Below the pieces are notes generated by a model that worked only from the letters and a program-made list of their open reading frames with translations, ran no database searches and was not told the DNA's origin. Below are positions 1 through 53,731 of a stretch of 64,000 nucleotides of DNA, one piece after another; position 1 is the first letter of the stretch, and every line of letters begins with the position of its first letter. This DNA is from Peptococcaceae bacterium (GTDB lineage Bacteria > Bacillota > Desulfotomaculia > Desulfotomaculales > JACDOK01): positions 64,205-128,204 of the forward strand of contig JACDOK010000001.1 in assembly GCA_017656185.1 (NCBI GenBank), in the 5' to 3' direction. Position numbers and translations under genes: made by a program.

Positions 1-66
1 TACTCACTGTTTCCCGCTTACTGCTCACTGATTACTGTTTCCTGACTACTGTTTACTGATTAACTG
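1..66 (-). repeat. Tandem heptamer tract (minus-strand CAGTAAN, plus-strand TTACTGN), about 9 units, truncated by the window edge
   Basis: ACTG recurs at 6, 20, 27, 34, 48, 55 and 63, with spacing of 7 or 14 nt. The tract includes the last codons and the TAA stop (53-55) of the 53..1204 gene. The same consensus occurs at 44778-44819. Confidence 0.6.
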
Positions 67-1204
67 ATGGTGGTACGACGGGCTTGCCGTAATCATAGTA
101 CCGGTAGTTAATGGCAATCATATCCTTCACACTGCGTCCTGTCCACACGTCTTGAAAATACATCCAGACCTTTAAATCCTTTTCCTTAATTAGTTTGCTG
201 TTCTCATCAAGATAAAACTTATATGAAATAGTAATATTATCATAGAAAGAGCTCAAAAGACTGATGACTTTCTTCCATTCGCCCGGGTCTTTACCGTCAC
301 CAATTCTTTTTAACAGTTCGAGAGTTTGTTCTTTATTTAAATTAATCTCTATCACTACAAGGCCTTCTTCCGCAGATTTGTCAGACTTGAAACGCGAGCG
401 CACCCCCGGAACCTGTAAAACCTGTTCAATATCCTGTTCACCGGATAATGATGCCGTGCCGGTCAGGCTGCCGGCAGGTAGTTCGGCTGAAGTTTCCTCG
501 GAGGTCTTCTTAACCCACGTATCCCCCTTCTTGATAAACAGGTTATCACCATCCAGGTACATTACCTGTGCCTCCGCATCTTCCCCATTAAGAGGTTTGA
601 TCGCGGCATAAACCTTCCCACCGGCCTGAGCCCATCCCGAGACTTCCTGTTTACGGCCCGATATATTAAGTTCAGGCCCGTTATCAATCTGCGTCAAAGA
701 CTCCACTGTACCGGTAAAATATACCGTATCAAACGTCTTAACGGCCTCCATGGCCTCCCTTAAAAATACCTCGGAGCCATCATCGGGCGTGATAACGGCT
801 ACCGTGTGCGAAGCAGGCAACCATTTTACAGAACAGCCCAGGCTTTCAGCTACAAAGCGCAGAGGTACGAAAGTTCTGTTATTCTTAACGCGGGGCGGGA
901 CTCGCAGCGGGACCTCCCGGTCTCCTACCACAGCCGTTGTTGAGCCGATTTGCAGCGTAACCTGCTCCCCACCGTAACCAGTTATACTTACCTTTTTTTC
1001 CTTCCCGTCCCAAGATACATATGTTCCCAAGGCTTCGGCAATAATACGGTACGGTACCATGGTAGTCCCCTGCTCAATGTAGGGCGGTTCATCACATTGC
1101 AGCTCCGCCCCGTCCAGAGTTAAAGTCAAAGGTGCCGCTCCATAGGCGAAGCTTATTGTCATAAACACCAAACACAGCGCCACTAATACGCACCGCAGCT
1201 GCAC
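53..1204 (-). CDS. Secreted protein with a copper-amine-oxidase N-terminal-like (stalk) domain
   Basis: The ORF track starts at 1366. A GTG at 1204 sits 7 nt after AAGGAGG and opens a signal-peptide-like segment (VQLRCVLVALCLVFMTISFAYGAAP). The motif ...VPYRIIAEALG...VSWD...RTFVPLRFVAESLG is typical of that domain. A terminator hairpin at 1340-1373 lies inside the longer ORF version. Confidence 0.6.
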   Translation of the reverse strand: MQLRCVLVALCLVFMTISFAYGAAPLTLTLDGAELQCDEPPYIEQGTTMVPYRIIAEALGTYVSWDGKEKKVSITGYGGEQVTLQIGSTTAVVGDREVPLRVPPRVKNNRTFVPLRFVAESLGCSVKWLPASHTVAVITPDDGSEVFLREAMEAVKTFDTVYFTGTVESLTQIDNGPELNISGRKQEVSGWAQAGGKVYAAIKPLNGEDAEAQVMYLDGDNLFIKKGDTWVKKTSEETSAELPAGSLTGTASLSGEQDIEQVLQVPGVRSRFKSDKSAEEGLVVIEINLNKEQTLELLKRIGDGKDPGEWKKVISLLSSFYDNITISYKFYLDENSKLIKEKDLKVWMYFQDVWTGRSVKDMIAINYRYYDYGKPVVPPSVNQ

Positions 1205-4740: not shown

Positions 4741-4923
4741 GATGCTAACTAATTATTCCACTTGTTTTTAAAGATCATGATATTATATGGCGGTTGTCTA
4801 ATATTTAAATGGTATCATATCCCAATTTACGTCGTCAAATCGCATCAGAAAAATTCAGCTTATTTTTACTTCAATAGATTTCGTCAGGCCCGTATCACAG
4901 CAAGTGCGATAGCACGCACGTAC

Positions 4924-11133: not shown

Positions 11134-11216
11134 GCCAAACAAAAGCTATTTTATCTTTTCCCCCCCCCTGTGATAAGATGATAGTATGGTTATGCTTGGA
11201 CTGGGGGGGGAAAGTA

Positions 11217-18328: not shown

Positions 18329-18342
18329 AGACCGCGATGGCC

Positions 18343-19573: not shown

Positions 19574-19575
19574 GG

Positions 19576-20145: not shown

Positions 20146-20486
20146 ACCACAAGGACCTCTCCCCTTTTAGGAACGTAGGCAGCATACGGAGCCGGTGCTT
20201 CCGCAGCTTCCTCCGTCTTAGCAGGTTTAATATTTATCTCTTTGAGCAGGCGAATATCCTTGTCACAGACCGGGCAGATCACAATATTTCCTTCTTTGGA
20301 GCCAAGGATCTTTCTTAACCGCTGGTAAAGTTCTTCTCGCCGGTTCTGCGTCAGATCTCCGAAAAAAGCTGAATACTGGATATGTGTTAAACCATAATCC
20401 TTACAGGCGTTAAAAACTTTATTACGGATCTTATCCTCGACAATATCGTAAAACACGAAGGTTTTCACATTACCATCCCCCCACAA
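20142..20486 (-). CDS. cas2: CRISPR-associated endoribonuclease Cas2
   Basis: VFYDIVEDKIRNKV...YGLTHIQYSAFFGDL is a Cas2 ferredoxin-fold pattern. The start is either ATG 20486 (overlapping cas1) or GTG 20468. Confidence 0.85.
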   Translation of the reverse strand: MWGDGNVKTFVFYDIVEDKIRNKVFNACKDYGLTHIQYSAFFGDLTQNRREELYQRLRKILGSKEGNIVICPVCDKDIRLLKEINIKPAKTEEAAEAPAPYAAYVPKRGEVLVV

Positions 20487-21477: not shown

Positions 21478-21542
21478 CGGAAATTGGCACCTCCCCGTGC
21501 AAGATATGTCGGTGGAGGTATAGTTTACCATGCACATTGTCG

Positions 21543-21606
21543 TTTGTTCAATAAAACGGCGATATTAGTGGGATTTCAGCAGGATAAGTGGGGATTCGCT
21601 TCTATT
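21543..21606 (-). repeat. Degenerate CRISPR-repeat-like element in the cas3'-cas1 intergenic region
   Basis: Minus strand reads GAATCCCCACTTATCCTGCTGAAAT. It shares colinear blocks TCCCC / TTATC / GCTGAAA with the array repeat, with about 9 nt deleted from the centre. TTGAACAAA follows at 21551-21543. Confidence 0.35.
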
Positions 21607-21673
21607 GTCGCCCACCATATAAGTATTCATATGGAGGCAAGTTTGCCAAGATACTTTGCCCGCACAAACGGTA

Positions 21674-23353: not shown

Positions 23354-23365
23354 TCGTTTCCCACC

Positions 23366-23971
23366 TCAACCTACCAGAGGCACGACATAATCGCCCACCT
23401 TCAATCGCCTCATACGCGGTAGGATCGGCACAGCAACGATAAGGTAACGACCTGTAGCTGCAATGGGGCGATAGGCAGGCAGTTTAACCAAGTCGGACAC
23501 AGTCACTTGCACAGGTAACACAACGGGCGCGCTGTTAATGGTGTCGGGTTCCACGTCGTCCTCGATGTGGCAAGCGGTGATAACGGCAGCCGCCCGCTTC
23601 TTGCCAATGAGAAACACCTGCCCCACCTGTAACGACGGCACTTCCCCCCACGCGACAAAGCGAAACCGCGAACCGGGCAAGAGGAGTTCCTGTCTGCCAA
23701 ATCGCAATAGCCCTGCCTTCGGATCATCTCCCGCCTTGTAAATCACTTCGGTTGTTCGCACCTCTATGGCCTCGGCGGGCGTGCAATCGAACGGAAACGT
23801 CAATGGTTGATATTCCTCGCGTTTGTCCCGTTGCAGAACTTCCGCATAGGTAATCGCGCTGGCAACCGCCTCTTTTGTAAAGAACTTATGCGTGCGTGCG
23901 CGACTCGCGTAGAACTCACGTACGTTCATCGTGGATGACTCCAGCATGAACTCTACATAAGCGGCTTGCAC
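23366..23971 (-). CDS. cas5: Putative Cas5-family (Csc1-like) RAMP protein
   Basis: GTG at 23971 lies 6 nt after AGGAGG, which overlaps the upstream stop. About 201 aa. Called from its position between the cas7-like gene and cas3'. No strong motif seen by eye. Confidence 0.4.
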   Translation of the reverse strand: MQAAYVEFMLESSTMNVREFYASRARTHKFFTKEAVASAITYAEVLQRDKREEYQPLTFPFDCTPAEAIEVRTTEVIYKAGDDPKAGLLRFGRQELLLPGSRFRFVAWGEVPSLQVGQVFLIGKKRAAAVITACHIEDDVEPDTINSAPVVLPVQVTVSDLVKLPAYRPIAATGRYLIVAVPILPRMRRLKVGDYVVPLVG

Positions 23972-23981
23972 GACGCACCTC

Positions 23982-24818
23982 CTATTCTTCCTGCACTGTT
24001 TCCTTCTGGGCATCAACACTTTGGAATTTCGTTGACAACTGGTTGATGGCTTCAAATAGATCATCGCCCGTCAAAACATCCTCCGCCGTCACACCGACAG
24101 CTGCCTGGGCGAACTCTTCGATCTGCTTAGCCAGGGATTTCTCACTCGAAAGCAACCTGTAAACAGACAGATGTGCAAAACCGTTTGCCATCAGCAGCCA
24201 ATCGGTGGTCGCGTTCCCACGCAGTTTCGAGTAGTTACCGTACCCCAGTCCATCCGCCAACTGGTTACCATGCAGAAATAGCATGAGATCGCGCTGACTA
24301 GGCTTAATGAGCCGCACAATGAAGGGAAATTCCGTGCCAGGCGGAACAATGACCTCCTGAAACGGCGTCGGGTTGGCGTTTGGTTCATCGGGAAGTCGTA
24401 CGCGAAACTTTTCGTCGTACTCATAGGGCTGAACAGAGATGAGGTCTTGCACCTTTAGCCGCGAAAACAGCGACTTGTTATTGTCTGTGCTCAAGCCTCC
24501 TAGCAACCCACATACTTCACACGCAACGCAAGGCTTGTCTACAGTGCAGTTATTCACGTTGAGTTTTGCCAACAGGACGCGACGCAACACGCCATTGTAT
24601 TTGCGCGCCAGCCACCAGTACCGTTCCTTGCCCGCGAACTCCACCTTCGCCGTCTCGCGTAACGTGCCAATGCCTTCGCTCGACACAAACAGTGCTTCGC
24701 TTTCCAGTCGCTTGATACCCACCAACGTCAAGACTCCCTCACGCATGAGGTTGATGCGCGTGGCGTCGAAGGCCTCTGGTACGCCCCACTTTACAGGCAA
24801 CCGGTCAATGAAATTCAT
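23982..24818 (-). CDS. cas7: Putative Cas7-family backbone protein (Csc2-like / type III-like RAMP)
   Basis: 278 aa. ATGA start/stop overlap with the upstream gene. CVACEVCGLLGG resembles the CxxCxxFG-type loop of Csm3/Cmr4-like Cas7 proteins. Confidence 0.5.
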   Translation of the reverse strand: MNFIDRLPVKWGVPEAFDATRINLMREGVLTLVGIKRLESEALFVSSEGIGTLRETAKVEFAGKERYWWLARKYNGVLRRVLLAKLNVNNCTVDKPCVACEVCGLLGGLSTDNNKSLFSRLKVQDLISVQPYEYDEKFRVRLPDEPNANPTPFQEVIVPPGTEFPFIVRLIKPSQRDLMLFLHGNQLADGLGYGNYSKLRGNATTDWLLMANGFAHLSVYRLLSSEKSLAKQIEEFAQAAVGVTAEDVLTGDDLFEAINQLSTKFQSVDAQKETVQEE

Positions 24819-27415
24819 TCTGACTCGCCTCCTTTGTAGTGGTTATAGTAGAACAGCAAATAGAGGTCCATATCGGCAATGGTGCGCGAGAAGTCCCCCA
24901 AAGGACAGCCTTCCCTCTCGCAAGTGGAGATAATCTCTTCCACAAGCTCAAGCACCTGCTTAACCAACTCTTGGTTCGCTCCGCGTTCATGTTCACGACG
25001 ATAGGCATTAAGCAAGCGAGTACCCCATGATCGCGCTGAATCGGCATCGCGCACCATTTTGATGCTTTGGATCCACTTAACCAGCTCGACGCCTGTATAC
25101 TGCTCCTGCTGCGTCTTCCAAAAACCCTTGGCACGAGGACACCATCCGTTCTCAACCAACAACCTTACAATCTTTAACCCCAACTGAAACTTCCAATCGC
25201 CCTGGGTAGCGATTTGCTCCGCCACGTCAATCACCTCCTTCACTTTGTCCGCTCCTGGTGAGAAGCTGTCCCGATGTTTCTTGCGCCATATCAAAGTGAC
25301 TGCGCGACGCGGGTTGTTCAGCAACTCAAGGAACAATCCTTGATTGAGCACGTAACTTTTCTTCGTCTTGCGTCTATTAGCGTCAGCTATACGGTAAGCG
25401 AGCGACGCGCGGCGCATTTCGTCCAACGTAACTTCTTCGCCGAACACTGAAAATTGATAATCAGTGGGCGTGACGTAATGAAGAGAGCCTCCCGTCAGGC
25501 GATAGAAGTCATACATCGTCGCTTTGATGAGTTCACGTTTAACGGCGCCACTTATGCCTTCTTCGCCTACCAATCGTTCGACAGGTATGCGCACCCCCAC
25601 GATGCTGCTAATGCGGTTCAGCGTCGGTAACGCAAAGCCTTTCAGTTGCGATAATCGCTTTCTGCTCCGCCCATAGACAGACAGCATATCAGCACCGATG
25701 TCCTCACCAATAAGAGCTTGTAGACCTGTCAGTTCCGCTGTGACAGAAGTCATCTCACTGTCTTGCTCTGATATCTCTGTCGCCTCGTGGCTTTCCTCTT
25801 CGATTTCCTCTACCGTTGCCGCGTGTGCAACGACATCAATCAACTTTTGCAGTCGCTCTTTAGCGAGCGGGCTATTGATGAGCAAATATTCACGCTGTTT
25901 GTTGACGCTCTGTCCTCTTGGTTTCGTAACCCTGGCGATAGGTAGGTCCATATAACCTGCTGTGAAACACCATTGGCAAACACGAATCATAGAGTGAGTT
26001 TTACGGTGAGTTTGGAACACACTGTCCGTCTTTGGGCTGCCCGTGATAAGACCCTGCCCTTGTATCTGCTGCGGGAAACAACGACAGATAGGACAAAGAG
26101 ATTTATTACGTAGGCTACGTCGTCCCGTGACGTGCGAACCGTTCAGCAAAGCAAACTCAGCAACCTGTAAGTTGTAAACACCACTTTGAACGTCCTCTTC
26201 CATACGTCGCAACTCCAAAACGACGTTTGTCAGCGAACGGTAACCATTCGATGAATAATCGAATAACTTGAGCAGTTCTTGCAAATCTTTCTGCGTTTTC
26301 CTGTCGAGTTCCTTTGGCGCTTTCAGGTACTCTGCCAATTTCTCCCCACGCTGAATACCTGCTGGCACGACATGGGTGGGTAACTTCAGGGACCTTCCTT
26401 GAGACGCAACCTTCTCACGCACCTTTTGCCAGAGAGACTTAATACCGTTCTCTAAACCATCCCTAAAGATTTCGGCCGCTTGTTCAATCGTATCCGACAA
26501 ATCATATCGTTCCAGTATCTCTCGAATACTTCTGCGACCGTAAAGTGCAGTGGCTAACTTGATAGCGATGGCTTCGTTGACAAGGAGATACTTCACGCTG
26601 GAAACCTCTAGTTCAGGCGGCAGTCCTGACAATATCGTGTCGAAGATTTTCTCATTAAACAATGCCTCATAGAGCATCTTAGGATTGACCGTCAGCCCTG
26701 TCAGCGCTTCCCGCACTTGCGATTCGTCGCCAACCACCCACAAAGTTCCGCGCTTTTGAAGAAGGATATCTAGGCCCCGTTCTATCAGTTCGGGTGCGAG
26801 TTGCTGAAATATCATGTTTGCCAACAGCACGTCCTCAACGGAGTGCGCGGGCAGATCGATGCGATGTATACACCCGCTTAACCCTTCTGTGAAACCCAAG
26901 GAGTGGGTCAATTCCATGTTTATTTGTGTATAAGGGTTTGATGCCAGCAGCAATTGGATGTTGCCGACGAATCCCCTTTCTAGGCAAGAGGCAATGACAT
27001 CCGCAATAGATACCAGAATCGCCGCCTTATACTCGACTAACAGCGATGGGCAGCAAGAATGATGTTCCTCTGCGATCTTCAGGAGGATACGCCTATCTGC
27101 ATCTAGGTTGATGCCATTGTCTTGCAGCAACATACGAAATCGTTGATCATCAAGCAAATCATCGAGATACTTTGACGAGTAGGAGCTATGGACCCACTGG
27201 TCACCTCGGACGTCCTGTTCAATCTTACCGACATCGTGGGTTAGCGCTCCGACACGCACGATATCGGCTTGATCGCCGACCATTTCCATATTCTTTGTAA
27301 TTAGATATTCAGCAACCTGGAACACATCATTGGAGTGCTCGAAGATGCTTAATCGCGGTTGGGTTTTTCCTGTGTAAGTGATGTACTTGTCGTAGGTGGT
27401 AAGTTCATGGGTCAT
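24815..27415 (-). CDS. CRISPR large subunit with an N-terminal Cas3''-type HD nuclease domain (Cas10d-like)
   Basis: 866 aa. HD motifs FEHS...GALTHDVGK...AEEHHSCC. Central CPICRC...CQWC zinc-finger-like pairs. No GGDD cyclase motif. Helical C-terminal region. Confidence 0.6.
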   Translation of the reverse strand: MTHELTTYDKYITYTGKTQPRLSIFEHSNDVFQVAEYLITKNMEMVGDQADIVRVGALTHDVGKIEQDVRGDQWVHSSYSSKYLDDLLDDQRFRMLLQDNGINLDADRRILLKIAEEHHSCCPSLLVEYKAAILVSIADVIASCLERGFVGNIQLLLASNPYTQINMELTHSLGFTEGLSGCIHRIDLPAHSVEDVLLANMIFQQLAPELIERGLDILLQKRGTLWVVGDESQVREALTGLTVNPKMLYEALFNEKIFDTILSGLPPELEVSSVKYLLVNEAIAIKLATALYGRRSIREILERYDLSDTIEQAAEIFRDGLENGIKSLWQKVREKVASQGRSLKLPTHVVPAGIQRGEKLAEYLKAPKELDRKTQKDLQELLKLFDYSSNGYRSLTNVVLELRRMEEDVQSGVYNLQVAEFALLNGSHVTGRRSLRNKSLCPICRCFPQQIQGQGLITGSPKTDSVFQTHRKTHSMIRVCQWCFTAGYMDLPIARVTKPRGQSVNKQREYLLINSPLAKERLQKLIDVVAHAATVEEIEEESHEATEISEQDSEMTSVTAELTGLQALIGEDIGADMLSVYGRSRKRLSQLKGFALPTLNRISSIVGVRIPVERLVGEEGISGAVKRELIKATMYDFYRLTGGSLHYVTPTDYQFSVFGEEVTLDEMRRASLAYRIADANRRKTKKSYVLNQGLFLELLNNPRRAVTLIWRKKHRDSFSPGADKVKEVIDVAEQIATQGDWKFQLGLKIVRLLVENGWCPRAKGFWKTQQEQYTGVELVKWIQSIKMVRDADSARSWGTRLLNAYRREHERGANQELVKQVLELVEEIISTCEREGCPLGDFSRTIADMDLYLLFYYNHYKGGESE

Positions 27416-27433
27416 TATCTCTATCCTCTCCCA

Positions 27434-28420
27434 TTATTTAGTAAACCCTATCTCATATCTCCCCATCCCGAACACGGCGCCCTTGCCGACGTGGATGAGC
27501 TCGCCTAAAGCCAATAAAGGTAAGAATTCATCCAAGTTATTGCCACGGTAGGTGACTTCACCCATTAAGCCGCCTAGGTTGACGCGGCCGTCCTGGCGGT
27601 GTGAGTAGCGCGCCCAGTCGACCCACCGGGTATTTTCCTTAACTGTTGTAACCTGTTCTGCCCGCTCGATAAGTCCTTTGTAATCAACCCGGAGTTCACG
27701 TTCGTGATGGAAGTAGCTCAAGGACGAAATGCGGCGCAGCAGCCCGCGGATTAAAACGTGAAACGGTAAGGACCGCACGAAGTGATTGTCGTGTTTGAGC
27801 CGTGTCACGGTCAGCAGGCGAATACTGATCTCATTACGACCTAAGTATTGCGCTTGAGCCCGCTCCCAAACTTTTTCGCCCGCTATCACAATATCAATGT
27901 TTTTCACGATACGGTCCCGGGCGTTATAGATTTCCGTCGCGGTATCTTCTACATCCAGAGCAGAAATACGGGCCAGTTGATAAGGTTTGCGCCCCTTGCC
28001 GATCCCTACCCGGCCCAGTTCTTCGAAGCAAATAATAAAATAAGGTAGATATCTAACGGCCTTGCCGAACAAGGCCAGGCCAAAGGCCAATTCCTCGCCG
28101 GGTGCATACTCGGTCTTCGTCTCTAAGGGTGGTTCTAAAACAAAAGGGCGCGAGATATTTTCCAAATTGCGCAGCACCTGGCTCCCTTCCGGCGGAGAAG
28201 TTTCGAAGATGTATGCATATGGACAGGTCTCCTTTAGGACACATTCCTTACATTCTCCCTGCCGTTGAGCGCAAGCAACCCGCCGGAAGACACGCCCGAA
28301 CCCGCCGCGCAGGGTAGAGCCCTTATAGGGTGGTAAGACGAGGCCCTGCTCTCCGGTACGGATCACGACCTCATACTTGGCAATCCGAAAAGCGGTAAGT
28401 TCTTGAGCAAGTGTGTTCAT
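27434..28420 (-). CDS. cas6: Cas6-family crRNA endoribonuclease (long form with a Cys-rich insert)
   Basis: C-terminal glycine-rich loop HVGKGAVFGMGRYE. N-terminal YKGSTLRGGFG. First gene of the interference operon. Confidence 0.75.
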   Translation of the reverse strand: MNTLAQELTAFRIAKYEVVIRTGEQGLVLPPYKGSTLRGGFGRVFRRVACAQRQGECKECVLKETCPYAYIFETSPPEGSQVLRNLENISRPFVLEPPLETKTEYAPGEELAFGLALFGKAVRYLPYFIICFEELGRVGIGKGRKPYQLARISALDVEDTATEIYNARDRIVKNIDIVIAGEKVWERAQAQYLGRNEISIRLLTVTRLKHDNHFVRSLPFHVLIRGLLRRISSLSYFHHERELRVDYKGLIERAEQVTTVKENTRWVDWARYSHRQDGRVNLGGLMGEVTYRGNNLDEFLPLLALGELIHVGKGAVFGMGRYEIGFTK

Positions 28421-35968: not shown

Positions 35969-37813
35969 TTACACCTTAACATCGGAAACCATTTCCTGCT
36001 GTTTGCGGGGAGTTTCCACCGTTTCGAAAACAACCGGTTTGAGTTCCTTTTCGGCCCGGGCAATTTGTTCCTCCGTACAGGTGGCCAGACCGGCTTTGAA
36101 GCAGAGAGCCCACATCATGATAATGCCGAGTACCCACCAAACAAGCTGCCAGGCCCAGGCATGCGGGAAGCCCAGGAAACTGAACGCGTTATTGCCCAGT
36201 ACCGCAAACGGGCCGATGGCAAAAAGGAACCAGACGGGAACAACCACCCACATCACCTTGCGCCAGGCCTTTTGTGAAGGAGTGGGAGCATCGATATCAT
36301 TCAGCCAGTTACGAATTTCCCGGCGCCGTTCTTTGATCTCTTCCGGCTCGCTGTCCGCCGTAAAGTAACTGACCAGCAAACCAACGGCCAGCGCGGTGAA
36401 AATCCCCCAGCCGGCACAGTGGATTGTGAGCGGGTATTTGAAGGCCGGTATTTGATAGGTAAGAAATACGGCCACAATACCGGCTATAAGTCCCGACAGC
36501 ACACCCGCTCCTGTAATTCTCAGACCGTAAATCACACCTAAAAGAGGCAGCCACATCAAGGTACCCAGGGAGGTGGCCAGCGCACCGAGCATCACAAGCG
36601 CCGCTTTTGACGTAAAGGCGATAATCATAGCCACCGCGGTAATCACTACCGCCAGGGTGCGTGACGTCCATATCTGTTCCTTATGGCTGGCACGCGGGCG
36701 GATGTATCTAAAGAACACGTCACGACAGATAATAGTCGACCCTGTACCGATATAGGGTGAGGCCGTGGACTGCATTGCGGCGATCGCCCCGATTGTTACC
36801 AAGGCCAGCACTCCTGCCGGCAGGAATTCGTGCATAAGCATTGGAACCACATCTGCGTCGGACGCAATATTAAGAACATCACCAAGAATTCTGGCGCCCA
36901 TACCCTGGATACCGGTAAAAAAGAACATGGCAAACCCGACTAGAGCCGTGGACATAAAGACCTGCTGCCAGGCAAAGGGCCTGGGGTTCTTATTGGAAAA
37001 CGACCACATCGTAAAGGCCGGGGACGACTGAATGCCCATAAGGGCAAACATGTAGGTCATAATCATGACTCCGGTCCAATGCGTCTCACCTGCCGTGAAT
37101 TTGATGACACCAGGGATTTTAAGATACTTAGTGTCCAGTAAGGCGAGCTGTTGGCTCATAACAGACCAACCGCCTACGGCCTTAAGGGTAAAGGCACCCA
37201 GAACAATGATACCCACGATGAGCAGGATGCACTGGAGGCAGTCGACCCAGGCCACGCTTCTAAGTCCCCCGGCAGCCACGTAGAACACCACCACCGCAGC
37301 AAGTAAGATGGAACCCACAACCACCGGCACACCCGTAACCCAGTGGAACAGAGCACCGGCGGCCATAAGCTGCACCGCCGAGTAGAAAGCGCTGTAAAGA
37401 AAGGCAACAAGAACAACCAGCCACCGCATTCCCTCAGTACCGAAATAATAGGCGTACATGTCACCCGGAGTAACAAACCCGTATCTTTTCCCCAACAGCC
37501 ACTGCCTTTTGGCAAAAAAAGCACCCGTAAGGGGAATAGTCAGAGCATAAAAGGAAGCAAAAGCATACGCCAAACCGTGCTGCCAAATCGAGCCCGGGTG
37601 ACCGACAAATGTCCAGCCGCTGAAGGAGGTCGCGGTGGCCGCCAGCAGGAATACCCACATGGGCAGCTGCCGCCCGGCAATCATGTATTGCCCTGCCGTT
37701 TTGGAAACACGCGCGCCCTTAATTCCGCAGTAGATACAGTAAATCCAGTACGCACCTACAGCTATCCATACCCACATTACATTTTCTGACAACCCGATTA
37801 CCCTCCCTTTCAA
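35969..37813 (-). CDS. Sodium:solute symporter family transporter (probable monocarboxylate/acetate uptake)
   Basis: About 14 TM segments. SSF motif GGLRSVAWVDCLQ. Adjacent to acs. The start is uncertain: TTG 37813, TTG 37792 (8 nt after GGGAGGG) or ATG 37777. Confidence 0.8.
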   Translation of the reverse strand: MKGRVIGLSENVMWVWIAVGAYWIYCIYCGIKGARVSKTAGQYMIAGRQLPMWVFLLAATATSFSGWTFVGHPGSIWQHGLAYAFASFYALTIPLTGAFFAKRQWLLGKRYGFVTPGDMYAYYFGTEGMRWLVVLVAFLYSAFYSAVQLMAAGALFHWVTGVPVVVGSILLAAVVVFYVAAGGLRSVAWVDCLQCILLIVGIIVLGAFTLKAVGGWSVMSQQLALLDTKYLKIPGVIKFTAGETHWTGVMIMTYMFALMGIQSSPAFTMWSFSNKNPRPFAWQQVFMSTALVGFAMFFFTGIQGMGARILGDVLNIASDADVVPMLMHEFLPAGVLALVTIGAIAAMQSTASPYIGTGSTIICRDVFFRYIRPRASHKEQIWTSRTLAVVITAVAMIIAFTSKAALVMLGALATSLGTLMWLPLLGVIYGLRITGAGVLSGLIAGIVAVFLTYQIPAFKYPLTIHCAGWGIFTALAVGLLVSYFTADSEPEEIKERRREIRNWLNDIDAPTPSQKAWRKVMWVVVPVWFLFAIGPFAVLGNNAFSFLGFPHAWAWQLVWWVLGIIMMWALCFKAGLATCTEEQIARAEKELKPVVFETVETPRKQQEMVSDVKV

Positions 37814-44276: not shown

Positions 44277-44708
44277 ATGTGGGTAAAACAAATCTCTATC
44301 TTCCTGGAAAATAAGTCCGGCCGGCTGGCCTCGGTCTGCCGTATTCTGGCCGACAACGACATCAACATCCGGGCGCTCTCCATAGCCGACACCTCGGATT
44401 TCGGCATTTTACGCTTGATCGTCAACCAACCGGAAAAAGCTTACCAGGTACTCAAGGAACAAGGATTCACCGTTAGCGAAACCGATGTGGTGGCCGTCGA
44501 AATACCCGATGCGCCCGGCGGCCTGGCACAGGTTCTTGAAATTCTGGCCCAGAAAGAAATTAATATCGAATACCTGTACGCCTTTGTCTCCAAATCAGCG
44601 GGAAACGCCCTGGTGATGTTAAAAGTGGAAGACCTGGAAAGCGCCGTTGAAGTTCTTACCCAGAACGGCATACGCGTTCCCAGCACAGGTGAGATTTATC
44701 GGATATAG
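44277..44708 (+). CDS. ACT domain protein
   Basis: 143 aa with two ACT-like repeats (ISIFLENKSGRLASVCRILADNDINIRAL ... PGGLAQVLEILAQKEINIEYLY). A common partner of paaK-type ligases. Confidence 0.8.
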   Translation: MWVKQISIFLENKSGRLASVCRILADNDINIRALSIADTSDFGILRLIVNQPEKAYQVLKEQGFTVSETDVVAVEIPDAPGGLAQVLEILAQKEINIEYLYAFVSKSAGNALVMLKVEDLESAVEVLTQNGIRVPSTGEIYRI

Positions 44709-44733
44709 ATATAGTTTGGGTAATTAATAATTA

Positions 44734-44764
44734 TTTAGGGGAGGGTCACAGACCCTCCCCTAAA
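44734..44764. terminator. Bidirectional terminator hairpin between the ACT gene and fdhE
   Basis: Perfect 14-bp inverted repeat TTTAGGGGAGGGTC-ACA-GACCCTCCCCTAAA with T-rich flanks. Confidence 0.7.
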
Positions 44765-44777
44765 TTCTTTCCCTTAA

Positions 44778-44819
44778 TTACTAATTTCTGTTTACTGTTT
44801 ACTCCTTACTGCTTAGGTC
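44778..44819 (-). repeat. Tandem heptamer tract (minus-strand CAGTAAN, plus-strand TTACTGN), 6 units, spanning the fdhE stop codon
   Basis: TTACTAA|TTTCTGT|TTACTGT|TTACTCC|TTACTGC|TTAGGTC. The fdhE TAA stop is the TTA of the fifth unit (44806-44808). Confidence 0.6.
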
Positions 44820-45633
44820 CGGCCGCCAAGGCCTGGTTAACAAACCCTTCCCTTACCGCCAGGATGTCCAGATGGACCGTTTTAATATCCTCCCAGAAAA
44901 GTTCTACTTTTTCATCCGCTTTACTTTCATCGACCGTCTTAAGATATCCTTTGCAGTCATCGCAAATATAGACCCGGTAGAGCGGCTGCCCTTCTACGCT
45001 GAAATAACGAACCTTACCCTTATTTCCGGTATCGCAATACGGGCATCCCATGCGATTATACAGCCACTCAGTGTTGCACTGGTTACAGTACAAATAGCGG
45101 CGCCCCACGGTCTTAGTAAGCTTAGCAAAGGTAGGCTTGCCCCCACAAACCGGACAAATGCCTTTAAGCCACCGGTCCAAATCAAGATACTCGCGTACTT
45201 TCTCAGCATAAACCCGCAAAAAGGGCCGGAAAGTATGCGTAATCAAGATGCCCACGGCATCCATCGGAATACGGCTGTTCGTAACTAGGTTACTCACCCA
45301 GCTGGTTTCCCCGCGTAAAACACTCTTTACAAATTCTTCCCGTTCTCCGGCATCTTCGGGCATGGCGGCATAAGCCCTGTCCAAATCACCGGCAGCCTCC
45401 GGCTGGTGTTTTTGCAAAATATCCCTGACCTGTCCCATCACGGCAAAGAAATCGGCAACATCGACTTGAGGGAAATGCAGCTTCAGCATGGGCATACCCT
45501 GCTTCCACACTTCCAAGAGATCATCTCCCGGCACATCAACTTTTACGGCATCGCCGGCAGGTTCAGCATCAAGCAGATCATTATACAAATCTACCAGGTT
45601 GGGCGGTATGAACTGCATTCCGATTTCGTTCAT
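44806..45633 (-). CDS. fdhE: Formate dehydrogenase accessory protein FdhE
   Basis: Four CxxC pairs (CPVCGG, CNQCNTEW, CPYCD, CDDCKGYLK) in the FdhE arrangement. Confidence 0.85.
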   Translation of the reverse strand: MNEIGMQFIPPNLVDLYNDLLDAEPAGDAVKVDVPGDDLLEVWKQGMPMLKLHFPQVDVADFFAVMGQVRDILQKHQPEAAGDLDRAYAAMPEDAGEREEFVKSVLRGETSWVSNLVTNSRIPMDAVGILITHTFRPFLRVYAEKVREYLDLDRWLKGICPVCGGKPTFAKLTKTVGRRYLYCNQCNTEWLYNRMGCPYCDTGNKGKVRYFSVEGQPLYRVYICDDCKGYLKTVDESKADEKVELFWEDIKTVHLDILAVREGFVNQALAAGPKQ

Positions 45634-46967: not shown

Positions 46968-47747
46968 TCAATGTCCGTCTTCCTCTTCGACATCCGCACG
47001 CCGCTTGGTGTACATATACAGGGCCGTCAATATGGCCGTCCAACCGATGGCAATGTGCGGCGTCCACTTGAGGACACTCCAGGTATACTGCGGGATACCC
47101 TTTGTCGTAATGTCAGTGCGGAAGCCGAGTTTTTCAAACGGGACATCAGACAGGTACAGTACCGAGGTGCCTCCGACTTCTTTCTCCCCGTATACGTGGT
47201 CGATGTATTTGCCGGGATTATTCTTGATGCGCCTCTTGGCTTCGGCCAATAACTCTTCACGATCGCCGAAGATATTGGCACCCGTCGGGCAGGCCGTCGT
47301 GCAGGCCGGCTCCATACCTTCCTGCAGGCGATCGTAGCACATCCGGCATTTGCGTACCAGCGGGAAAGCCTTATCCCACTCGTACTTCGGCACCTGGAAC
47401 GGGCAGGCCAGCATGCAGTAACGGCAGCCAACACACAGGTTTTCTTTGTAAACGACCGGACCTTCCGGTGTCTTTACAAAAGCGTGTACGAAGCACGCCG
47501 ATTCGCAGGCCGGCTCGTTACAGTGCATGCACTGTCTCTTGGCAAAGCGCCACTGCACTTGGTCGCCGTCTTCAAGAAGGTGGAAACCCACCCGGGTCCA
47601 GTTATAAGCGTTCAATTCCGGGGGGTTGGACCAGTCGTTACTGAAAGAGGTTGAGACCGCGGGCAGGTCGTTCCACTGCTTACACGCGGTCTGACATGCC
47701 CGGCAGCCGATACACTTCGTAATATCTATGAGCATTCCTTTACTCAC
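46968..47747 (-). CDS. Formate dehydrogenase 4Fe-4S ferredoxin-type beta subunit (copy 1)
   Basis: Four Cys clusters (CIGCRACQTAC, CMHCNEPACESAC, CVGCRYCMLACP, CRMC...CTTACP) and a C-terminal TM anchor. Confidence 0.85.
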   Translation of the reverse strand: MSKGMLIDITKCIGCRACQTACKQWNDLPAVSTSFSNDWSNPPELNAYNWTRVGFHLLEDGDQVQWRFAKRQCMHCNEPACESACFVHAFVKTPEGPVVYKENLCVGCRYCMLACPFQVPKYEWDKAFPLVRKCRMCYDRLQEGMEPACTTACPTGANIFGDREELLAEAKRRIKNNPGKYIDHVYGEKEVGGTSVLYLSDVPFEKLGFRTDITTKGIPQYTWSVLKWTPHIAIGWTAILTALYMYTKRRADVEEEDGH

Positions 47748-47793
47748 TTATTGCCACCTCCGCTTTAAAAAGTCCGTAGCCATCTCCGGCCGG

Positions 47794-50700
47794 TTATACC
47801 TTCCTGATGTTGCAGAGGAATGCCTTGTACTCTGGAATTTCGGTGTTCGGGTCTCCAAGACTGGGTGTGAGATCGTTAGCCGAAGCACCCGGAGCCAGGC
47901 CCTGGTAACCCCAATGCCACGGCATACCAACAATTTCAACTAATTTACCGTTGATTTCCAGTGGCTTCATAATGGGTGAAACACAAGCTTTGCACTTGAT
48001 CTCACCCCGTGCCGAGGAGACAATAACCTCGTCACCGGGTTTAATGCCCAGTTGATCGGCCAAAGTCTTGGAAATCTCCACGAACATCTCCGGCATTAAC
48101 TCGACGAGGTACGGGCAGTTTCTTGTCAGCGCCCCGCTCTGGTAGTGCTCGATCAAACGGTGCGTCGTGGCGACATACGGGAATTCAGGACTGCCCTCCT
48201 TCGCCACTTTGGCAAAATCTCCCGAGCGGAATTTCACCAACGGGTTATACTGCCGTCCCGACATAAGGTTCACCGTCGGACTTTCCACCGGTTCATAGTG
48301 TTCGGGGAACGGCATATCCTTCAACCCGTTGGCAAACAACCGGCCATGTCCCTCAGGAAGCATAATGAAAGGCGCCTTCGCTGTTTCTTCCGGTGGTTTA
48401 GCCGCTGCAAAGTCAGGTACGTCATTCATTTCCCATTCTGTTCCCGTCCACCTGAATACCGGAGTTTCGGGATCCCAAGGCTTGCCGCTCGGGTCACACG
48501 AACACCGGTTATAGATAATACGCCGGTTAAGAGGCCAAGCGAATGACCAGCCGAGGTGGCTGCCGATACCCTCCGTTTCGCGTTCACGGGATTGACAGGC
48601 CGGGATACTCTGATCCTTAGCGTACTTGTTGGGAGCCCAGTATCCCGTATAAATCCACATACCGCAGGCAGTCGACCCGTCGTCTTTGAGCTGGCCGAAG
48701 CTGGACAACACCTGACCGTCCGCCACGTTATAGCCGTTCAACTCAATGGCGACTTTTTCGATATCGGGCTCGTCATGACCCGGTTTATCGTAATCCCACT
48801 TCATCTTCAGAATGGGATCGGGGAATACGCCGCCTTTCTCGTACTCTTTCCGGATAGCCTTGAACAGCCTGTCAGCGATCCAGAGATCGCTCTTGGCATC
48901 GCCCAGCGGCTCAATGGCTTTCCAGCGCCATTGGATCCAGCGGCCGCTGTTGGTGACGGTACCCTCTTTTTCGTACGGCCCGCAGGCCGGCAGGAAAAAT
49001 ACCTCGGTACCAATGGTCTTCGGGTCAACACCGGGAGCCTTCCAGAAAGCTGCCGTCTCAGTCTCCACCAGGTCGATGGCCACCAGCCAATCCAAATTCT
49101 CCAGCGCCTTCCGCTCAAAGTGGGATGACGGGCCACCCACAACCGGGTTCTGGCCCCAGGCGAAAAAGCCCTTAATCTCACCCTTGGCCATATGCTCAAA
49201 GGCATCCATGTGAGAGTGTTCACCAGCCGGTAATTTGGGTAAGTAATCATAGCAGAAGTCGTTTTCGGGCGTCGCTGCATCGCCCCAGAAGGCTTTCAGC
49301 AGGCTAATGAGGAACTTGGGCTTGTTCTTCCAGTAGCCGCTCGCCGGAGTGGCCTTATCAATGTAATCCTTCAGCGTGGGATGAGTAGCGGCCCTGGGCA
49401 TCCCGAGATATCCCGGTAGAATATGATACATCATCGCCAAGTCGGTGGAACCCTGCACGTTGGACTCACCGCGCTGGGCATTTACACCACCGCCGGCCAG
49501 GCCGATATTACCCAGCAGTAGCTGGAGCATGGCGAGCGAACGCACGTTGTTGGCCCCCACCGTATGCTGGGTAAGACCCATGGCGTATACCACAGTGCCT
49601 ACCTTGCCGGGTATTCCGGTAGCACAGTACGTCTCGCAGATTTTCAGGTACAGATCTTCCGGGACACCCGTGATCCGGGAAACGGTCTTGGGATCATAAC
49701 GGGACACGTGTTTTTTCAAGAGCTGGAAGACACAGTTGGGATCCTGCAGTGTCAGGTCCCGTTTTACTTGGCCGTTTTCATCCTTCTGGTACTGCCAGGA
49801 GGACTTGTCATAGCCCTTTTCACTGAAACCGGAAAATACCCCGTCGTTATCTCCGGGGAGCTTGAAGGACGGATCGATCAAATAGGAAGCATTGGTGTAA
49901 TTAACCACGTACTCGTGGTGATAGAGGTTATTTTGGATGGCATAATTCATCATACCCAGGAGGAAAGCAATATCGGTACCCGGTCTGTGGCGAGCGAAAA
50001 GATCCGCCTGGGCCGCAGTCTTGGTAAACCTGGGATCGACTACAATCAACTTGGCACCGTGATGTTCCCTGGCCCTGGTGATCCACTTAAAGGCCATCGG
50101 GTGGTTCTCCGCCGGGTTAGCACCAATGACTAGAAAAGCATCGGCGTGCTGGTAGTCAATCCAGTGATTGGTCATAGCTCCTCTACCGAATGTATTGGCC
50201 AGACCGGCCACGGTAGTGGAGTGTCAGAGACGGGCGTGGTGATCAATATGATAAAGCCCTAACGCCCGGCAGAGCTTATGCATCAAGTAGTTTTCCTCGT
50301 TGTCAATCGACGCGCTGCCGAGCTCGAAGATTGCCGGGGTACGGTTGACGGTAACGCCGTTTTCATCAACGGTTTCAAAAGTGGCATCACGCGTCTTTTT
50401 CACCCTTTTAGCAATCTCAGCGAGTGCCCAGTCCCAGTCTTTTTCCTCCCAGTGGTCGGAATGCGGTGCCCGGTAAAGAACCTTGGTCATCCTCTGTTTG
50501 CTGGGAACACGATTTCTTTTCCGGTTGACAACATAGGTCAGATCGGAAACCGACATTCCTTTCGGACAAAGAGCCCCTTCGTTGATCGGGTGGTCCGGGT
50601 CCCCTTGAATGTTGATGACCTTGCCGTCCCGGGTGTGAACAAGTAAACCGCAACCACAGGCACAGAAAGGACAGATACTCGCGGTTTCTTCGGCGTACTG

Positions 50701-50832
50701 AAGTTTGAACGGTCCCAGCTTAATGGGAGACTCTGATGCTTCAGCCGGTATGCCCGCAGCATCTAATAATGAAACCCCGGCTGCGCCCAGTCCGAGAGCT
50801 TTGAGAAATTCCCGCCTACTAAGTTTCCTCAT
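47794..50832 (-). CDS. fdhA: Selenocysteine-containing formate dehydrogenase catalytic (molybdopterin) subunit, Tat-exported
   Basis: The two ORF-track pieces (50224..50832 and 47794..50211) are in one frame, joined by an in-frame TGA at 50226-50224, reading HHARL-U-HSTTVAGLANTFGRGAMTNHW (the conserved Sec site). Twin-arginine signal SRREFLK. N-terminal CxxCxxC Fe-S motif. Confidence 0.9.
50183..50216 (-). promoter_or_regulatory. SECIS-like hairpin 7 nt downstream of the UGA
   Basis: Lower stem CTACCG (50216-50211) pairs with CGGTAG (50188-50183). Upper stem GGCC/GGCC with apical loop GGTCT. Confidence 0.6.
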
Positions 50833-51162: not shown

Positions 51163-52365
51163 TTAAGCCTGAACCGGTGTACCTCCGCCGGCAACGGCAC
51201 GCGCCTTTTCTTTCTTGAGTTTGGCCTTATAGGCTTCCTGGTCTTCGTGGAAGATATTGAAATTCTCAACCACGAAGCAGTATACCAGGATACCGGCTGA
51301 GATCAAGCCAATGGTAAGCGACCATTCCATCCAGGACGGGAAGTAGTGCCCGCCGGCGGCATCCGCCATACCGGTAAACACGACGTTCATCCTGTTGAAG
51401 ACGACGCCGACAACCACCAGAATCGAGGTGGTTACCAAGCCGCCCACCGAGTTGCGCACACTCGGAATCAGGAACAGCACGAGCGGCAGCAGGATAAAGC
51501 CCAGTATTTCCACAAGGAACATGTTCGCTTCGAAGGAACCGTTGAAGACGTATCCCCACGCGTCGCGATAAGTCAGGTCGATGCACTTCAGGACGAAGTA
51601 GAAGGCCAAAAGCCACGCCGTTACTTTCCACAAGCTGGTCAGCACCGGCATTTCGGCCTGGAAGTTGCGGCCGTAAGCCTTTGAAGCCAGCCAGCCTTCA
51701 AAGGTTACCATCGCCGGGCCCACAAAGACCGCCGAGGTCAGGAAGAAGACCGGAATAATCATCGACCACCAGGTCGGGTAAAGCCGGTCCACGGTGATGA
51801 TGTACAGGGAACCCAGCGAGGACTGGTGCAAGGTGGGCAGCATTACGCCGATGATAAACAGCCCCGGAAGCATCCAGTCAAACAGTTTCTTGAGCGGTTC
51901 ACTCTTGATACGTTCAAACAAGATATGCCCAAACTCGAGCACCTGGACAGTGGTGTACAACGACACACACCAGAAGACTTCAAACAACACCGAATGGTGA
52001 CCCCAGTAGAAGAACGGGCGCCAGAAGTTGTACCAGCGACCGATATCGAAGAACAGCCCGCCCATCACCAGCAGGTAACCGATCAGCGAGGTAAGAAGGG
52101 CGGCACGGGCAATACTGTGGTACTTCTTCTTGTGCAGAATGTGGATGATAAAGCACGTACTAAAACCACCGCCGGCCAGGGCAACGCCGGTCAGAACGTC
52201 AAACCCAATCCACAGACCCCAGGGCCATTCGTCGTTAAGGTTAGTGGCGGCCCCGAGCCCGAACAACAGACGGTAAGTAGCCACACCTACCATCAACAAA
52301 GTCAGGGCGATTAGCACAACCCTATACGGGGTCATCCGGAAAGTCCATCTTGTATACTGATCCAT
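51163..52365 (-). CDS. NrfD/PsrC-family membrane subunit (copy 2)
   Basis: The protein is identical to copy 1 except for two residues near the C-terminus (AVADGGAPVQA versus AVAGGGTPVQA). The DNA is essentially identical over most of the gene. Confidence 0.8.
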   Translation of the reverse strand: MDQYTRWTFRMTPYRVVLIALTLLMVGVATYRLLFGLGAATNLNDEWPWGLWIGFDVLTGVALAGGGFSTCFIIHILHKKKYHSIARAALLTSLIGYLLVMGGLFFDIGRWYNFWRPFFYWGHHSVLFEVFWCVSLYTTVQVLEFGHILFERIKSEPLKKLFDWMLPGLFIIGVMLPTLHQSSLGSLYIITVDRLYPTWWSMIIPVFFLTSAVFVGPAMVTFEGWLASKAYGRNFQAEMPVLTSLWKVTAWLLAFYFVLKCIDLTYRDAWGYVFNGSFEANMFLVEILGFILLPLVLFLIPSVRNSVGGLVTTSILVVVGVVFNRMNVVFTGMADAAGGHYFPSWMEWSLTIGLISAGILVYCFVVENFNIFHEDQEAYKAKLKKEKARAVAGGGTPVQA

Positions 52366-52403
52366 ACAGGTGTACCTCCTTTTACCTTAATCTTCCGTAC
52401 GGT

Positions 52404-53183
52404 TTAATGTTCATCTTCCTCGTCGGCGTCCACACGCCGCTTGGTGTACATATACAGGGCCGTCAATACAGCCGTCCAGCCAATGGCAATGTGTGGCGTC
52501 CACTTGAGGACACTCCAGGTATACTGCGGGATACCCCTGGTAGTGACGTCCGTACGGAAGCCGAGTTCCTCGAACGGGATATCAGACAGGTACAGTACCG
52601 AGGTACCTCCGACCTCTTTCTCCCCGTATACGTGGTCGATGTATTTGTCGGGATTATTCTTGATGCGATTCTTGGCTTCGGCCAGCAATTCGTCACGATC
52701 GCCGAAGATATTGGCACCCGTCGGGCAGGCCGTCGTGCAGGCCGGCTCCATACCTTCCTGCAGGCGATCGTAGCACATCCGGCATTTGCGTACCAGCGGG
52801 AAAGCCTTATCCCACTCGTACTTCGGCACCTGGAACGGGCAGGCCAGCATGCAGTAACGGCAGCCAACACACAGGTTTTCTTTGTAAACGACCGGACCTT
52901 CCGGTGTCTTTACAAAAGCGTGTACGAAGCACGCCGATTCGCAGGCCGGCTCGTTACAGTGCATGCACTGTCTCTTGGCAAAGCGCCACTGCACTTTACC
53001 GTTTATTTCAACCTTATGGAAACCCACCCGGGTCCAGTTGTAGGCATCCGTTTCAAGGGAATCGAATGTGCCCTCTTGGGAAGGTGTCGGGAGCACGGGC
53101 AGGTCGTTCCACTGCTTACAGGCGTTCTGACATGCCCGGCAGCCGATACACTTCGTAATATCTATGAGCATCCCTTTACTCAC
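52404..53183 (-). CDS. 4Fe-4S ferredoxin-type beta subunit (copy 2)
   Basis: Same length and Cys clusters as copy 1. Central part identical, residues ~20-60 strongly diverged. Confidence 0.8.
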   Translation of the reverse strand: MSKGMLIDITKCIGCRACQNACKQWNDLPVLPTPSQEGTFDSLETDAYNWTRVGFHKVEINGKVQWRFAKRQCMHCNEPACESACFVHAFVKTPEGPVVYKENLCVGCRYCMLACPFQVPKYEWDKAFPLVRKCRMCYDRLQEGMEPACTTACPTGANIFGDRDELLAEAKNRIKNNPDKYIDHVYGEKEVGGTSVLYLSDIPFEELGFRTDVTTRGIPQYTWSVLKWTPHIAIGWTAVLTALYMYTKRRVDADEEDEH

Positions 53184-53220
53184 TTAATTGCCACCTCCGC
53201 TTTAAAAAGTCCGTAGCAGG

Positions 53221-53731
53221 CTACGGCACGTGGCGCCCGGAAGCAGCCCCTGGCAACCCCCGAACCAGGACAACCCGGTAAGTCATACCACCCGGCTTGT
53301 CCCTTATGTTTCCAGTGGCTCCTGAATGGGCGAAGCAACCCTTACGCTTGTTATCTCCCTGTCGTTCCGAAACCGGCAAGCTGAACAGCACCGTGCTGTT
53401 CGCATTGACTATTTGGCTAGCTAAAAAATGTTTCCGACATCCGGATTCACCGTGAACCCGTTTGCCACTAACTTCATTATCCCCCGGAACCGGAAGAAAC
53501 AGCGTTCCCGTACGATTAGGAGTCCCCATCCTCGCGATGTTTACCGGCAGTATCAGGCGATGTAATACCTGTTTCGGACAATGTCTCTTCGGCATACTTA
53601 ATTTTAATGGTTCCTATCTTAACGGACGGCAGCTTGCTGCCAGCCGGCACCTCAGCGGCATTTAGCAAGGAGATCTTCTCCGTACCAAAACCAAGAGCCT
53701 TTAGAAAGTCACGCCTGCTGAGTTTTTTCAT
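53221..53731 (-). pseudogene. Decayed remnant of a second formate dehydrogenase catalytic subunit gene
   Basis: 53731-53516 encodes MKKLSRRDFLKALGFG...KIKYAEET, homologous to the Tat signal and first ~45 aa of FdhA, then loses the Cys cluster and stops. 53221-53430 retains a frame homologous to the FdhA C-terminus (VSERQGDNKRKGC... versus VSSARGEIKCKAC...). About 0.5 kb remains where the intact gene is 3.0 kb. Confidence 0.75.

Follow-up and report, generated by a model that had tools for sequence, protein, structure and literature searches.

Behind the fdhE gene of a Peptococcaceae MAG lies a short run of near-identical heptamers, and the question raised by this locus is whether the run is a site for an RNA-binding protein, some other working part of the mRNA 3' end, or repeat DNA of little consequence. 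A first-pass annotation of the region had noticed NAG triplets every 7 nt in this run and had read it as a possible site for a ring-shaped antiterminator of the HutP type. We examined the run (tract A) within the 64,000-nt stretch of contig that contains it, here called the window, and compared it with further arrays of the same organism, with homologous loci in relatives and with similar arrays in collections of genomes and viral contigs.

Anatomy of the tract behind fdhE

Read on the minus strand from 44812 to 44778, tract A runs G-CAGTAA G-GAGTAA A-CAGTAA A-CAGAAA T-TAGTAA. It is a short, partly decayed array with the unit NCAGTAA on the transcribed strand and TTACTGN on the other strand. 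The CAGUAAN heptamers and NAG triplets previously described on the minus strand are real and can be read directly in the sequence, with five in-phase NAG triplets between 44810 and 44781. The features of the locus are the following.

44778..44811, minus strand: tract A, five heptamer units (sequence reading, TRF, pattern matches, unit tally)
44806..45633, minus strand: fdhE, 275 aa (ORF; Pfam FdhE_central/FdhE_C), with its native C-terminal Gln-stop as repeat unit 1
44277-44708, plus strand: convergent ACT-domain gene, sharing the bidirectional hairpin with fdhE
44733..44765, both strands: bidirectional intrinsic-terminator-like hairpin, ATTTAGGGGAGGGTC-NNN-GACCCTCCCCTAAAT (terminator scan; fold z = -4.1)
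44722..44786, no strand assigned: outer AT-rich extension of the hairpin (inverted-repeat search; the predicted fold pairs its arms)

The protein encoded at 44806-45633 is named FdhE by NCBI, and unit 1 of tract A consists of its last codon, CAG (44811-44809), and its stop codon, TAA (44808-44806). The tract thus begins, as had been claimed, at the last sense codon and stop of the 275-aa FdhE ORF (CAG TAA, 44811-44806); the start given for it earlier, 44819, takes in seven extra coding bases, GACCTAA. We could also confirm that the period of 7 puts TAA in all three frames, since TAA occurs at offsets 5, 12 and 19, and the three frames are covered within 21 nt of the fdhE stop codon.

At its other end the tract stops just short of the bidirectional terminator hairpin, again in agreement with the earlier description, with a gap of 12 nt. 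The hairpin at 44733-44765 has a perfect stem of 15 bp and a terminator-like score on both strands, and on the plus strand it is followed by the U-rich complement of tract A (TCTTTCCCTT..., TCTTTCCCTTAATTACTAATTTCTGTTTACTG...). Over 12 nt, the last unit of the tract (44775-44786; plus strand, TAATTACTAATT) matches the complement of 44722-44733 at 92%. No array accompanies at least eight further terminator hairpins of the window, which indicates that an array is not needed for termination.

A chance origin of tract A is excluded. TRF reported a period of 7 at 44788-44815 (4.0 copies) and at 18-68 (7.1 copies), the latter in a second array described below as tract B. The pattern AGTAANNAGTAANNAGTAA, with up to three mismatches allowed, matched the window 13 times, with 1.0 match expected, and 11 of the 13 matches fell in tracts A and B. 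Runs of five AG dinucleotides in phase at 7-nt spacing were found three times (0.04 expected), all of them in the same two tracts.

The hexamer CAGTAA forms the end of three of the 58 long ORFs in the window. The gene of an OpuAC substrate-binding protein (1399-2301, minus strand) also ends in CAG TAA (1399-1404); GTAACAG comes next, with no in-phase array behind it. The hexamer is further included in a 9-nt tandem repeat, CAGTAAATA, of 2.6 copies at 37728-37750, which sits antisense within the 5' end of an SSF-family transporter gene.

Recurrence of the array in the same organism

The first-pass annotation had pointed out that the motif recurs at positions 1-66 of the window behind an unrelated gene. 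This proved correct: the second array (tract B) follows the CAG TAA (53-58) of a gene with a Cu_amine_oxidN1 domain.

1..58, minus strand: tract B, CAGTAA-A CAGTAG-T CAGGAA-A CAGTAA-T CAGTGA-G CAGTAA-G CGGGAA-A CAGTGA... (sequence, TRF, pattern matches)
53..1204, minus strand: Cu_amine_oxidN1-domain gene, 383 aa (domain search), whose Gln-stop begins tract B

Tract B begins at the stop at 53-58 and runs off the window edge, and a degenerate unit, TCAGTTAA (59-66), is found upstream of it within the coding end. The sequence past the edge was supplied by the Logan contig L002, which overlaps the window without a difference. In L002 the complete tract B occupies positions 4591-4671 and comprises about eight clean units followed by purine-rich heptads (GTAGGTG AGGAGTG AGGAGGA ...). 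It has a higher-order period of 14/28 nt with 82% matches, which indicates block duplications within the repeat array.

Past tract B in L002 we found a second terminator-like hairpin, GGGAGCC-TTACAAA-GGCTCCC, and then CTGTTTACTGTTTACT, which is the same heptamer on the opposite strand. This third array (tract C) is inverted relative to tract B and lies beyond the terminator, 8 nt past the TAG stop of a convergent hydrolase gene, so that this tract too occupies the 3' UTR of its gene on the sense strand. Together with tract B it makes up an inverted pair, the two being 89% complementary over 19 nt across the terminator, and the complement of tract C places a U-rich tail on the Cu_amine_oxidN1 transcript. 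The predicted fold of the 206-nt B-C region was no better than that of shuffled sequences (z = -0.77).

Altogether about 77 kb of the organism contain three tracts, all on the sense strand, at or near a stop codon and facing a terminator. Tracts A and B lie on the minus strand and tract C on the plus strand, so that orientation tracks the genes and not the chromosome strand. An identical 16-mer is common to tracts A and C; the matches of tract B to them are confined to short heptamer stretches. A dispersed or mobile element was considered and rejected: blastn-short searches of the window and L002 with both regions returned only the 16-nt heptamer match and no flanks common to the three tracts, which are thus not copies of a dispersed element. 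That the recurrence speaks against coincidence, as had been argued, is supported by the counts of the pattern and of the AG runs, both far above expectation.

Conservation within the units

We tallied 16 units and found positions 1-6 to be C13 A15 G16 T12 A14 A15, with position 7 free (A7 T5 G4). The best-conserved dinucleotide is AG (15/16 and 16/16 units), and TAA is kept about as well as NAG. Conservation thus covers six of the seven positions (CAGTAA), not NAG alone, as is characteristic of a tandem DNA repeat. The stop is lost in four of the seven variant units (CAGGAA twice, CGGGAA and CAGAAA); selection for stops or for NAG within the units was set aside, as 16 units are too few.

Further candidates were rejected. 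One was a small ORF behind the Shine-Dalgarno-like AAGGAG/AGGAGG of the tracts; tract A has no start codon suitably spaced for it, and in tract B an ATG directly follows AGGAGGA and opens an ORF of eight codons, which we judged from reading the sequence to be due to chance. A CsrA sponge in the GGA-rich tail of tract B was supported by no model.

Comparison with HutP sites

HutP binds two XAG-rich sites, each with three triplets separated by 4-nt spacers, which flank a GC-rich terminator segment with a linker of 12-17 nt, and its binding opens the terminator ahead of the hut structural genes (PMC2425495). Tract A resembles the first of these sites in the B. subtilis hut terminator, where at least three XAG triplets with 4-nt spacers lie 5' of a GC-rich stem (PMC2425495), in that its five in-phase NAG triplets are likewise spaced and placed 5' of the terminator stem. 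In the hut system, however, a second XAG-rich site lies past the GC stem, the leader stands ahead of the regulated genes, the protein is encoded in the same operon and the spacers are unconserved (PMC2425495). Here no AG is present in GACCCUCCCCUAAAUAAUUAUUAAUUACCCAAACUAUAUCUAUAUCC, the 3' half of the hairpin with its tail. The terminator is located between the convergent fdhE and ACT-domain genes and not before genes to be switched on, so that read-through would give only antisense RNA into the ACT gene. Finally, instead of XAG alone, positions 1-6 are kept in 12-16 of the 16 units, and position 7 alone is free. The missing second site, the missing downstream gene and the conservation of six positions speak against a HutP-type site.

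The first-pass annotation had also proposed a search for HutP- or TRAP-like proteins. With tblastn none was found within the 77 kb formed by the window, L001 and L002, the best E-value being 0.26; of the two queries, B. subtilis HutP and TRAP, the former was verified against PDB 1VEA. In Rfam 15, searched with the whole window and, for the tract, also at E-values up to 10, no match over the tract reached the gathering threshold, and the best matches there scored 13.7-19.5 bits, compared with thresholds of 44-100. The match to PrrB/RsmZ (13.7 bits vs a gathering score of 44; E = 0.4) was regarded as noise that reflects only GGA-rich purine sequence.

We conclude that a sequence-specific ring protein is probably not involved here. 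Of the earlier interpretation, the part that holds is that the tracts are not coincidental and not randomly placed (sense strand, stop codon, before a terminator), whereas the HutP mechanism is not supported. For annotators this means that NAG-N4 periodicity by itself does not signal a HutP site.

The fdhE locus in relatives

The nearest FdhE homologue has 52% identity and is encoded at two loci (L123 and L124, both encoding P0002), which show the same synteny as here: an fdh operon, fdhE, then convergent ACT and AMP-binding genes. At both loci fdhE ends ...AAT CAG TAG with no repeat behind it, and in about 45 kb of sequence from relatives (L123-L129, with synteny partly the same) no CAGTAA-like array was found. 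The check on related genomes that had been suggested thus showed absence of the tract from the nearest fdhE loci, at 52% identity of FdhE. In the protein alignment the two closest homologues (P0002 and P0003) end in Q at the same position as our FdhE, which indicates that the array did not truncate fdhE and that unit 1 is the native gene end.

A scan of JGI metagenomes for the fdhE-end junction gave 0 matches. The strain comparison comprised one strain, in which the Logan contigs were identical to the window.

Arrays of the same unit in other genomes and phages

We carried out a census of arrays with three perfect units (CAGTAANCAGTAANCAGTAA) in 185,579 species genomes (GTDB). At least 120 loci with three or more perfect units were found, against about 17 matches estimated by chance for 18 specified bases in 596 Gb under the assumption of uniform base composition. 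IMG/VR likewise contained at least 120 such loci, compared with 55 and 14 loci for control heptamers of the same composition. The genome matches listed came mostly from Cyanobacteria (Microcystis, seven loci of one Spirulina genome, and Nostocales), Bacteroidota, Chloroflexota, Acidobacteriota, Planctomycetota, Verrucomicrobiota and Desulfobacterota, and a few came from Bacillota.

Gene maps for the 126 genomic arrays among the matches listed were crude and consisted of the longest ORFs of at least 100 aa. Among these matches, 36 of 61 sense (CAGTAA) arrays overlapped the stop of a same-strand ORF or lay at most 16 nt from it, compared with 5 of 48 antisense arrays (Fisher p = 1e-7). Where a listed ORF ended inside the array, its stop came from unit 1, 2 or 3 in 6, 5 and 8 cases, that is about equally often, as expected if the frame is irrelevant. 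All 14 arrays located inside ORFs among the matches listed were antisense, because the sense strand carries stops in every frame.

An inverted (TTACTGN)2 partner within 250 nt was found downstream in 37 cases and upstream in 4 (binomial p = 1e-7; among the matches listed), with a background of 2% per 250-nt window. In viral contigs the stop bias and the downstream-partner bias were both replicated among the matches listed, also when array-dense contigs were set aside, and the ratio of downstream to upstream partners in the phage contigs listed was 123:3. Several inverted partners precede T-runs or enclose a GC hairpin (L024, L070, L053, L033), and the spacers between inverted arrays are unrelated from genome to genome.

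The arrays reach 8 to 24 units. Orthologous arrays of two Microcystis species vary in copy number on both arms (4 units in L011 vs 3 in L046, with partner arrays of 27 vs 41 nt), a length change that is typical of simple-sequence repeats. In Microcystis (L011, L046) and in Nostocales including Halotia (L053), CAGTAAA arrays pair with TAACTGA arrays across a spacer or a perfect GC hairpin, TAACTGA not being the exact complement of CAGTAAA.

Some phage contigs of about 60% GC are rich in such arrays (L165, i.e. IMGVR_UViG_3300038416_000315, and L160, L134, L136, L141, L144, L151 and L171). In the mapped contigs L165, L160 and L134, most intergenic regions consist of a (CAGTRRN)n array and an inverted (NYYACTG)n array with a short A-rich loop between them, and for L136, L141, L144, L151 and L171 the same layout is suggested solely by the many matches. 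The intergenic arrays of L165 were predicted to form hairpins of -39 to -121 kcal/mol; Pfam domains of this contig include those of structural genes, namely a head-tail connector, head completion, the Gp77 adaptor and a tail protein.

Tracts A, B and C obey all placement rules of the census. The rules seen here (stop codon, sense orientation, inverted partner downstream) are those seen in Cyanobacteria, Bacteroidota, Chloroflexota and phages, and their strength (p about 1e-7, replicated in a second collection) merits a study at genome scale of whether they reflect tolerance or a role at the mRNA 3' end.

Origin and possible function of the tract

With tract A the organism has at least three such arrays, and the tract is a member of a cross-phylum class of intergenic heptameric repeats. 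In our opinion it is probably a neutral or nearly neutral heptanucleotide simple-sequence repeat that arose by slippage and was nucleated on the native CAG-TAA. Replication slippage would have grown an array that started from, or aligned on, the terminal CAG-TAA of fdhE and came to fill the A-rich stretch between the stop codon and the bidirectional intrinsic terminator. Such an array may persist where its stops do no harm, at or after a stop codon and in the TAA orientation, since with TAA in all three frames an array of this orientation would survive only there. It could then serve as the A-rich 5' arm beside the hairpin while its complement forms the U-rich tail of the convergent ACT transcript, often with an inverted partner array past the hairpin, as for tracts B and C. 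Because an A-rich strand 5' of a hairpin gives the convergent transcript a U-rich tail through its complement, there may be a simple reason why the order is A-arm, hairpin, U-arm and not the reverse. Any function would be generic, the tract acting as an unstructured, stop-rich spacer and as an extension or flank of the terminator stem.

The anatomy of the tract, its recurrence, the placement rules of the class and the lack of an array at the nearest homologous loci are directly supported, while the origin by slippage and the lack of a dedicated binding partner are inferred; against recent slippage at this locus, position 7 varies freely between neighbouring units and the units are imperfect. 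The strong placement rules and the excess over control heptamers could also mean selection for function instead of mere tolerance. For the fdhE locus itself little is at stake, with a native Gln-stop, an intact terminator and most genes of the window terminating without such a tract.

The array may instead be a working part of the 3' end, in which a CAGUAAN arm and an inverted NUUACUG arm form an extended terminator or an mRNA-stabilising stem and the complement of the array supplies the U-rich tail for termination of the convergent gene. We consider this rather unlikely, although the U-rich complement that follows the hairpin on the plus strand leaves room for a role in termination or 3'-end stability. 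The excess of downstream inverted partners among the matches listed (37:4, and 123:3 in phage contigs), the 89% complementarity of tracts B and C across the terminator and the pairing of the last unit of tract A into the predicted extended stem all point in this direction, as do the phage contigs in some of which every intergenic region is such a predicted hairpin (-39 to -121 kcal/mol) and the finding that in Xanthomonas G4-forming heptamer repeats coincide more often than control repeats with the start or the stop of transcripts (PMC4692102). Most terminators of the window, however, lack arrays, the partner of tract A is weak, and the B-C region folds no better than shuffled sequence. A wider reading, by which (CAGUAAN)n and inverted (NUUACUG)n would be selected 3'-end modules shared across phyla and possibly read by a conserved protein, their stop-rich A arms and U arms building or extending bidirectional terminators or mRNA-stabilising hairpins, seems to us unlikely. 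If true, it would take its extreme form in the phages with such a hairpin in every intergenic region, and the fdhE tract would be a functional 3'-UTR element and not neutral repeat DNA.

It is quite improbable that an oligomeric protein of HutP-like, TRAP-like or S1/Csp/CsrA type, contacting one triplet per 7 nt, uses the tract as a cis-acting RNA site. Such a site would fit the spacing of the five NAG triplets, which is that of HutP (PMC2425495), the conservation of AG, the sense orientation of all three tracts and the S1, Csp or CsrA binding on which MacGregor speculated for the related TAACTGA repeats (PMC4679880), but it is opposed by the lack of a HutP site II and of a downstream gene, by the lack of a HutP/TRAP homologue within 77 kb and of any Rfam match above noise, and by TAA being conserved about as well as NAG. 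The same arrays are moreover found in phyla and phages in which HutP is not known to occur. A fail-safe translation stop cassette, in which the three-frame TAA would free read-through or frameshifted ribosomes before the hairpin or the mRNA end, agrees with all three frames being stopped within 21 nt of the stop codon and with the class-wide location of sense arrays at stop codons; we regard it as very improbable, as four of seven variant units here have lost the stop, three units would be enough whereas arrays run to 8-24, and most genes of the window have no such cassette. Inverted arrays resemble terminal inverted repeats and the plus strand has TTAC every 7 nt, as might be expected if a mobile element (MITE, REP or IS) had left a remnant or one of its ends here, or if the tract were a DNA-level iteron array for a DNA-binding protein. 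This explanation is very improbable as well, as the copies have heptamers in common but neither a body nor a target duplication, the inverted arrays of different genomes enclose unrelated spacers, and orientation follows the genes and not the chromosome strand (A and B minus, C plus).

Other features of the window

The formate dehydrogenase operon is apparently present in two copies (46968-50832 and about 52350-53600), which have the same 12-nt repeat and matching sequences at 47282/52718 and 47409/52845. In the complete copy an in-frame TGA splits the catalytic subunit into ORFs at 50224-50832 (Molybdop_Fe4S4) and 47794-50211 (Molybdopterin); the TGA most likely encodes selenocysteine. In the relative L123 the gene call is split in the same way.

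A CRISPR array at 17622-18336 holds at least ten copies of a repeat of about 37 nt (CTTTCAGTCCCCTATTTATCGGGTCATTAGCTGAAAC) with a period of about 74 and adjoins a type I-like cas locus (18653-28420, minus strand) with Csa1, Cas4, Cas2, Cas1, a Cas3-type helicase and Cas6. An OpuA-type glycine-betaine ABC transporter operon (1399-4519, minus strand) is preceded by a c-di-AMP riboswitch (RF00379, 95.9 bits; 4609-4746, minus strand). Downstream of the ORF at 10684-11133, at about 11160-11230 on the plus strand, nine C are followed about 45 nt further on by eight G (CCCCCCCCC...GGGGGGGG), which could form a long-loop hairpin just before the next ORF.

Relation to known heptameric repeats

In many prokaryotes, long simple-sequence repeats most often have heptanucleotide units, for which polymerase slippage has been proposed as the cause (Mrazek et al. 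2007, as reported in PMC4679880), and stop-codon bias, coding-strand bias and inverted pairs are known for other heptameric repeats (PMC4692102, PMC4679880). The tracts described here have the properties of this class: at least three tandem 7-nt units, above chance, at several unrelated loci with unrelated flanks. They are also placed as the class is, with A and B beginning at CAG TAA, C located 8 nt past a TAG stop, and B and C inverted. The first-pass annotation had named membership of a known repetitive element as an outcome that would overturn its proposal, and in spirit this is what we found, the tract falling into the class of intergenic heptanucleotide simple-sequence repeats.

The TAACTGA repeats described by MacGregor (2015) in marine Beggiatoaceae, Cyanobacteria and Bacteroidetes (PMC4679880) have a 7-nt tandem unit that is one base off our complement when N = T (TTACTGA), and their phyla match those of the CAGTAAN census. 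Like ours, they have stops in all three frames of one orientation and extend over upstream stop codons, by about two units at most, with two to six copies being typical (PMC4679880). In BOGUAY, however, most sets lie just upstream of start codons, in place of a ribosome-binding site (PMC4679880), whereas our tracts are located in the 3' UTRs of convergent genes, before terminators and without a downstream start codon. The stop-rich strand is TAACTGA itself there and the complement, CAGTAAN, here, and position 7 is free only in our arrays. We therefore do not assign the tracts to the TAACTGA repeat network, their unit being CAGTAAN/TTACTGN and all three lying in 3' UTRs before terminators.

The heptameric repeats GGGAATC of Xanthomonas and GGGGAYT of Nostoc, described by Rehm et al. 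(2015) (PMC4692102), resemble ours as intergenic 7-nt tandem arrays of about four units with inverted pairs able to form stem-loops (PMC4692102). They are G-rich and quadruplex-forming, whereas ours are A-rich and unstructured, and the host here is a Peptococcaceae MAG (Bacillota).

The short tandemly repeated repetitive (STRR) heptanucleotides of the cyanobacteria Calothrix and Nostoc have the units CCCCAGT, TTGGTCA and CAACAGT. They too form intergenic heptamer tandem arrays, and by sequence resemblance alone two of the three units have the CAGT core, CAACAGT being one base off our AAACAGT phase. To our knowledge, STRR have been described only in heterocystous cyanobacteria. A Nostoc preprint describes regulatory effects of other heptamer repeats near promoters, and a report on a heptanucleotide repeat of Calothrix is cited in PMC4692102.

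The kind of element and its placement biases were thus already known, and what is new here is the unit CAGTAAN, the fact that a Peptococcaceae MAG carries it, and a downstream-partner rule that has been quantified. An A-rich heptamer repeat that is close kin of the TAACTGA and STRR repeats is present also in the MAG of an anaerobic member of the Bacillota.
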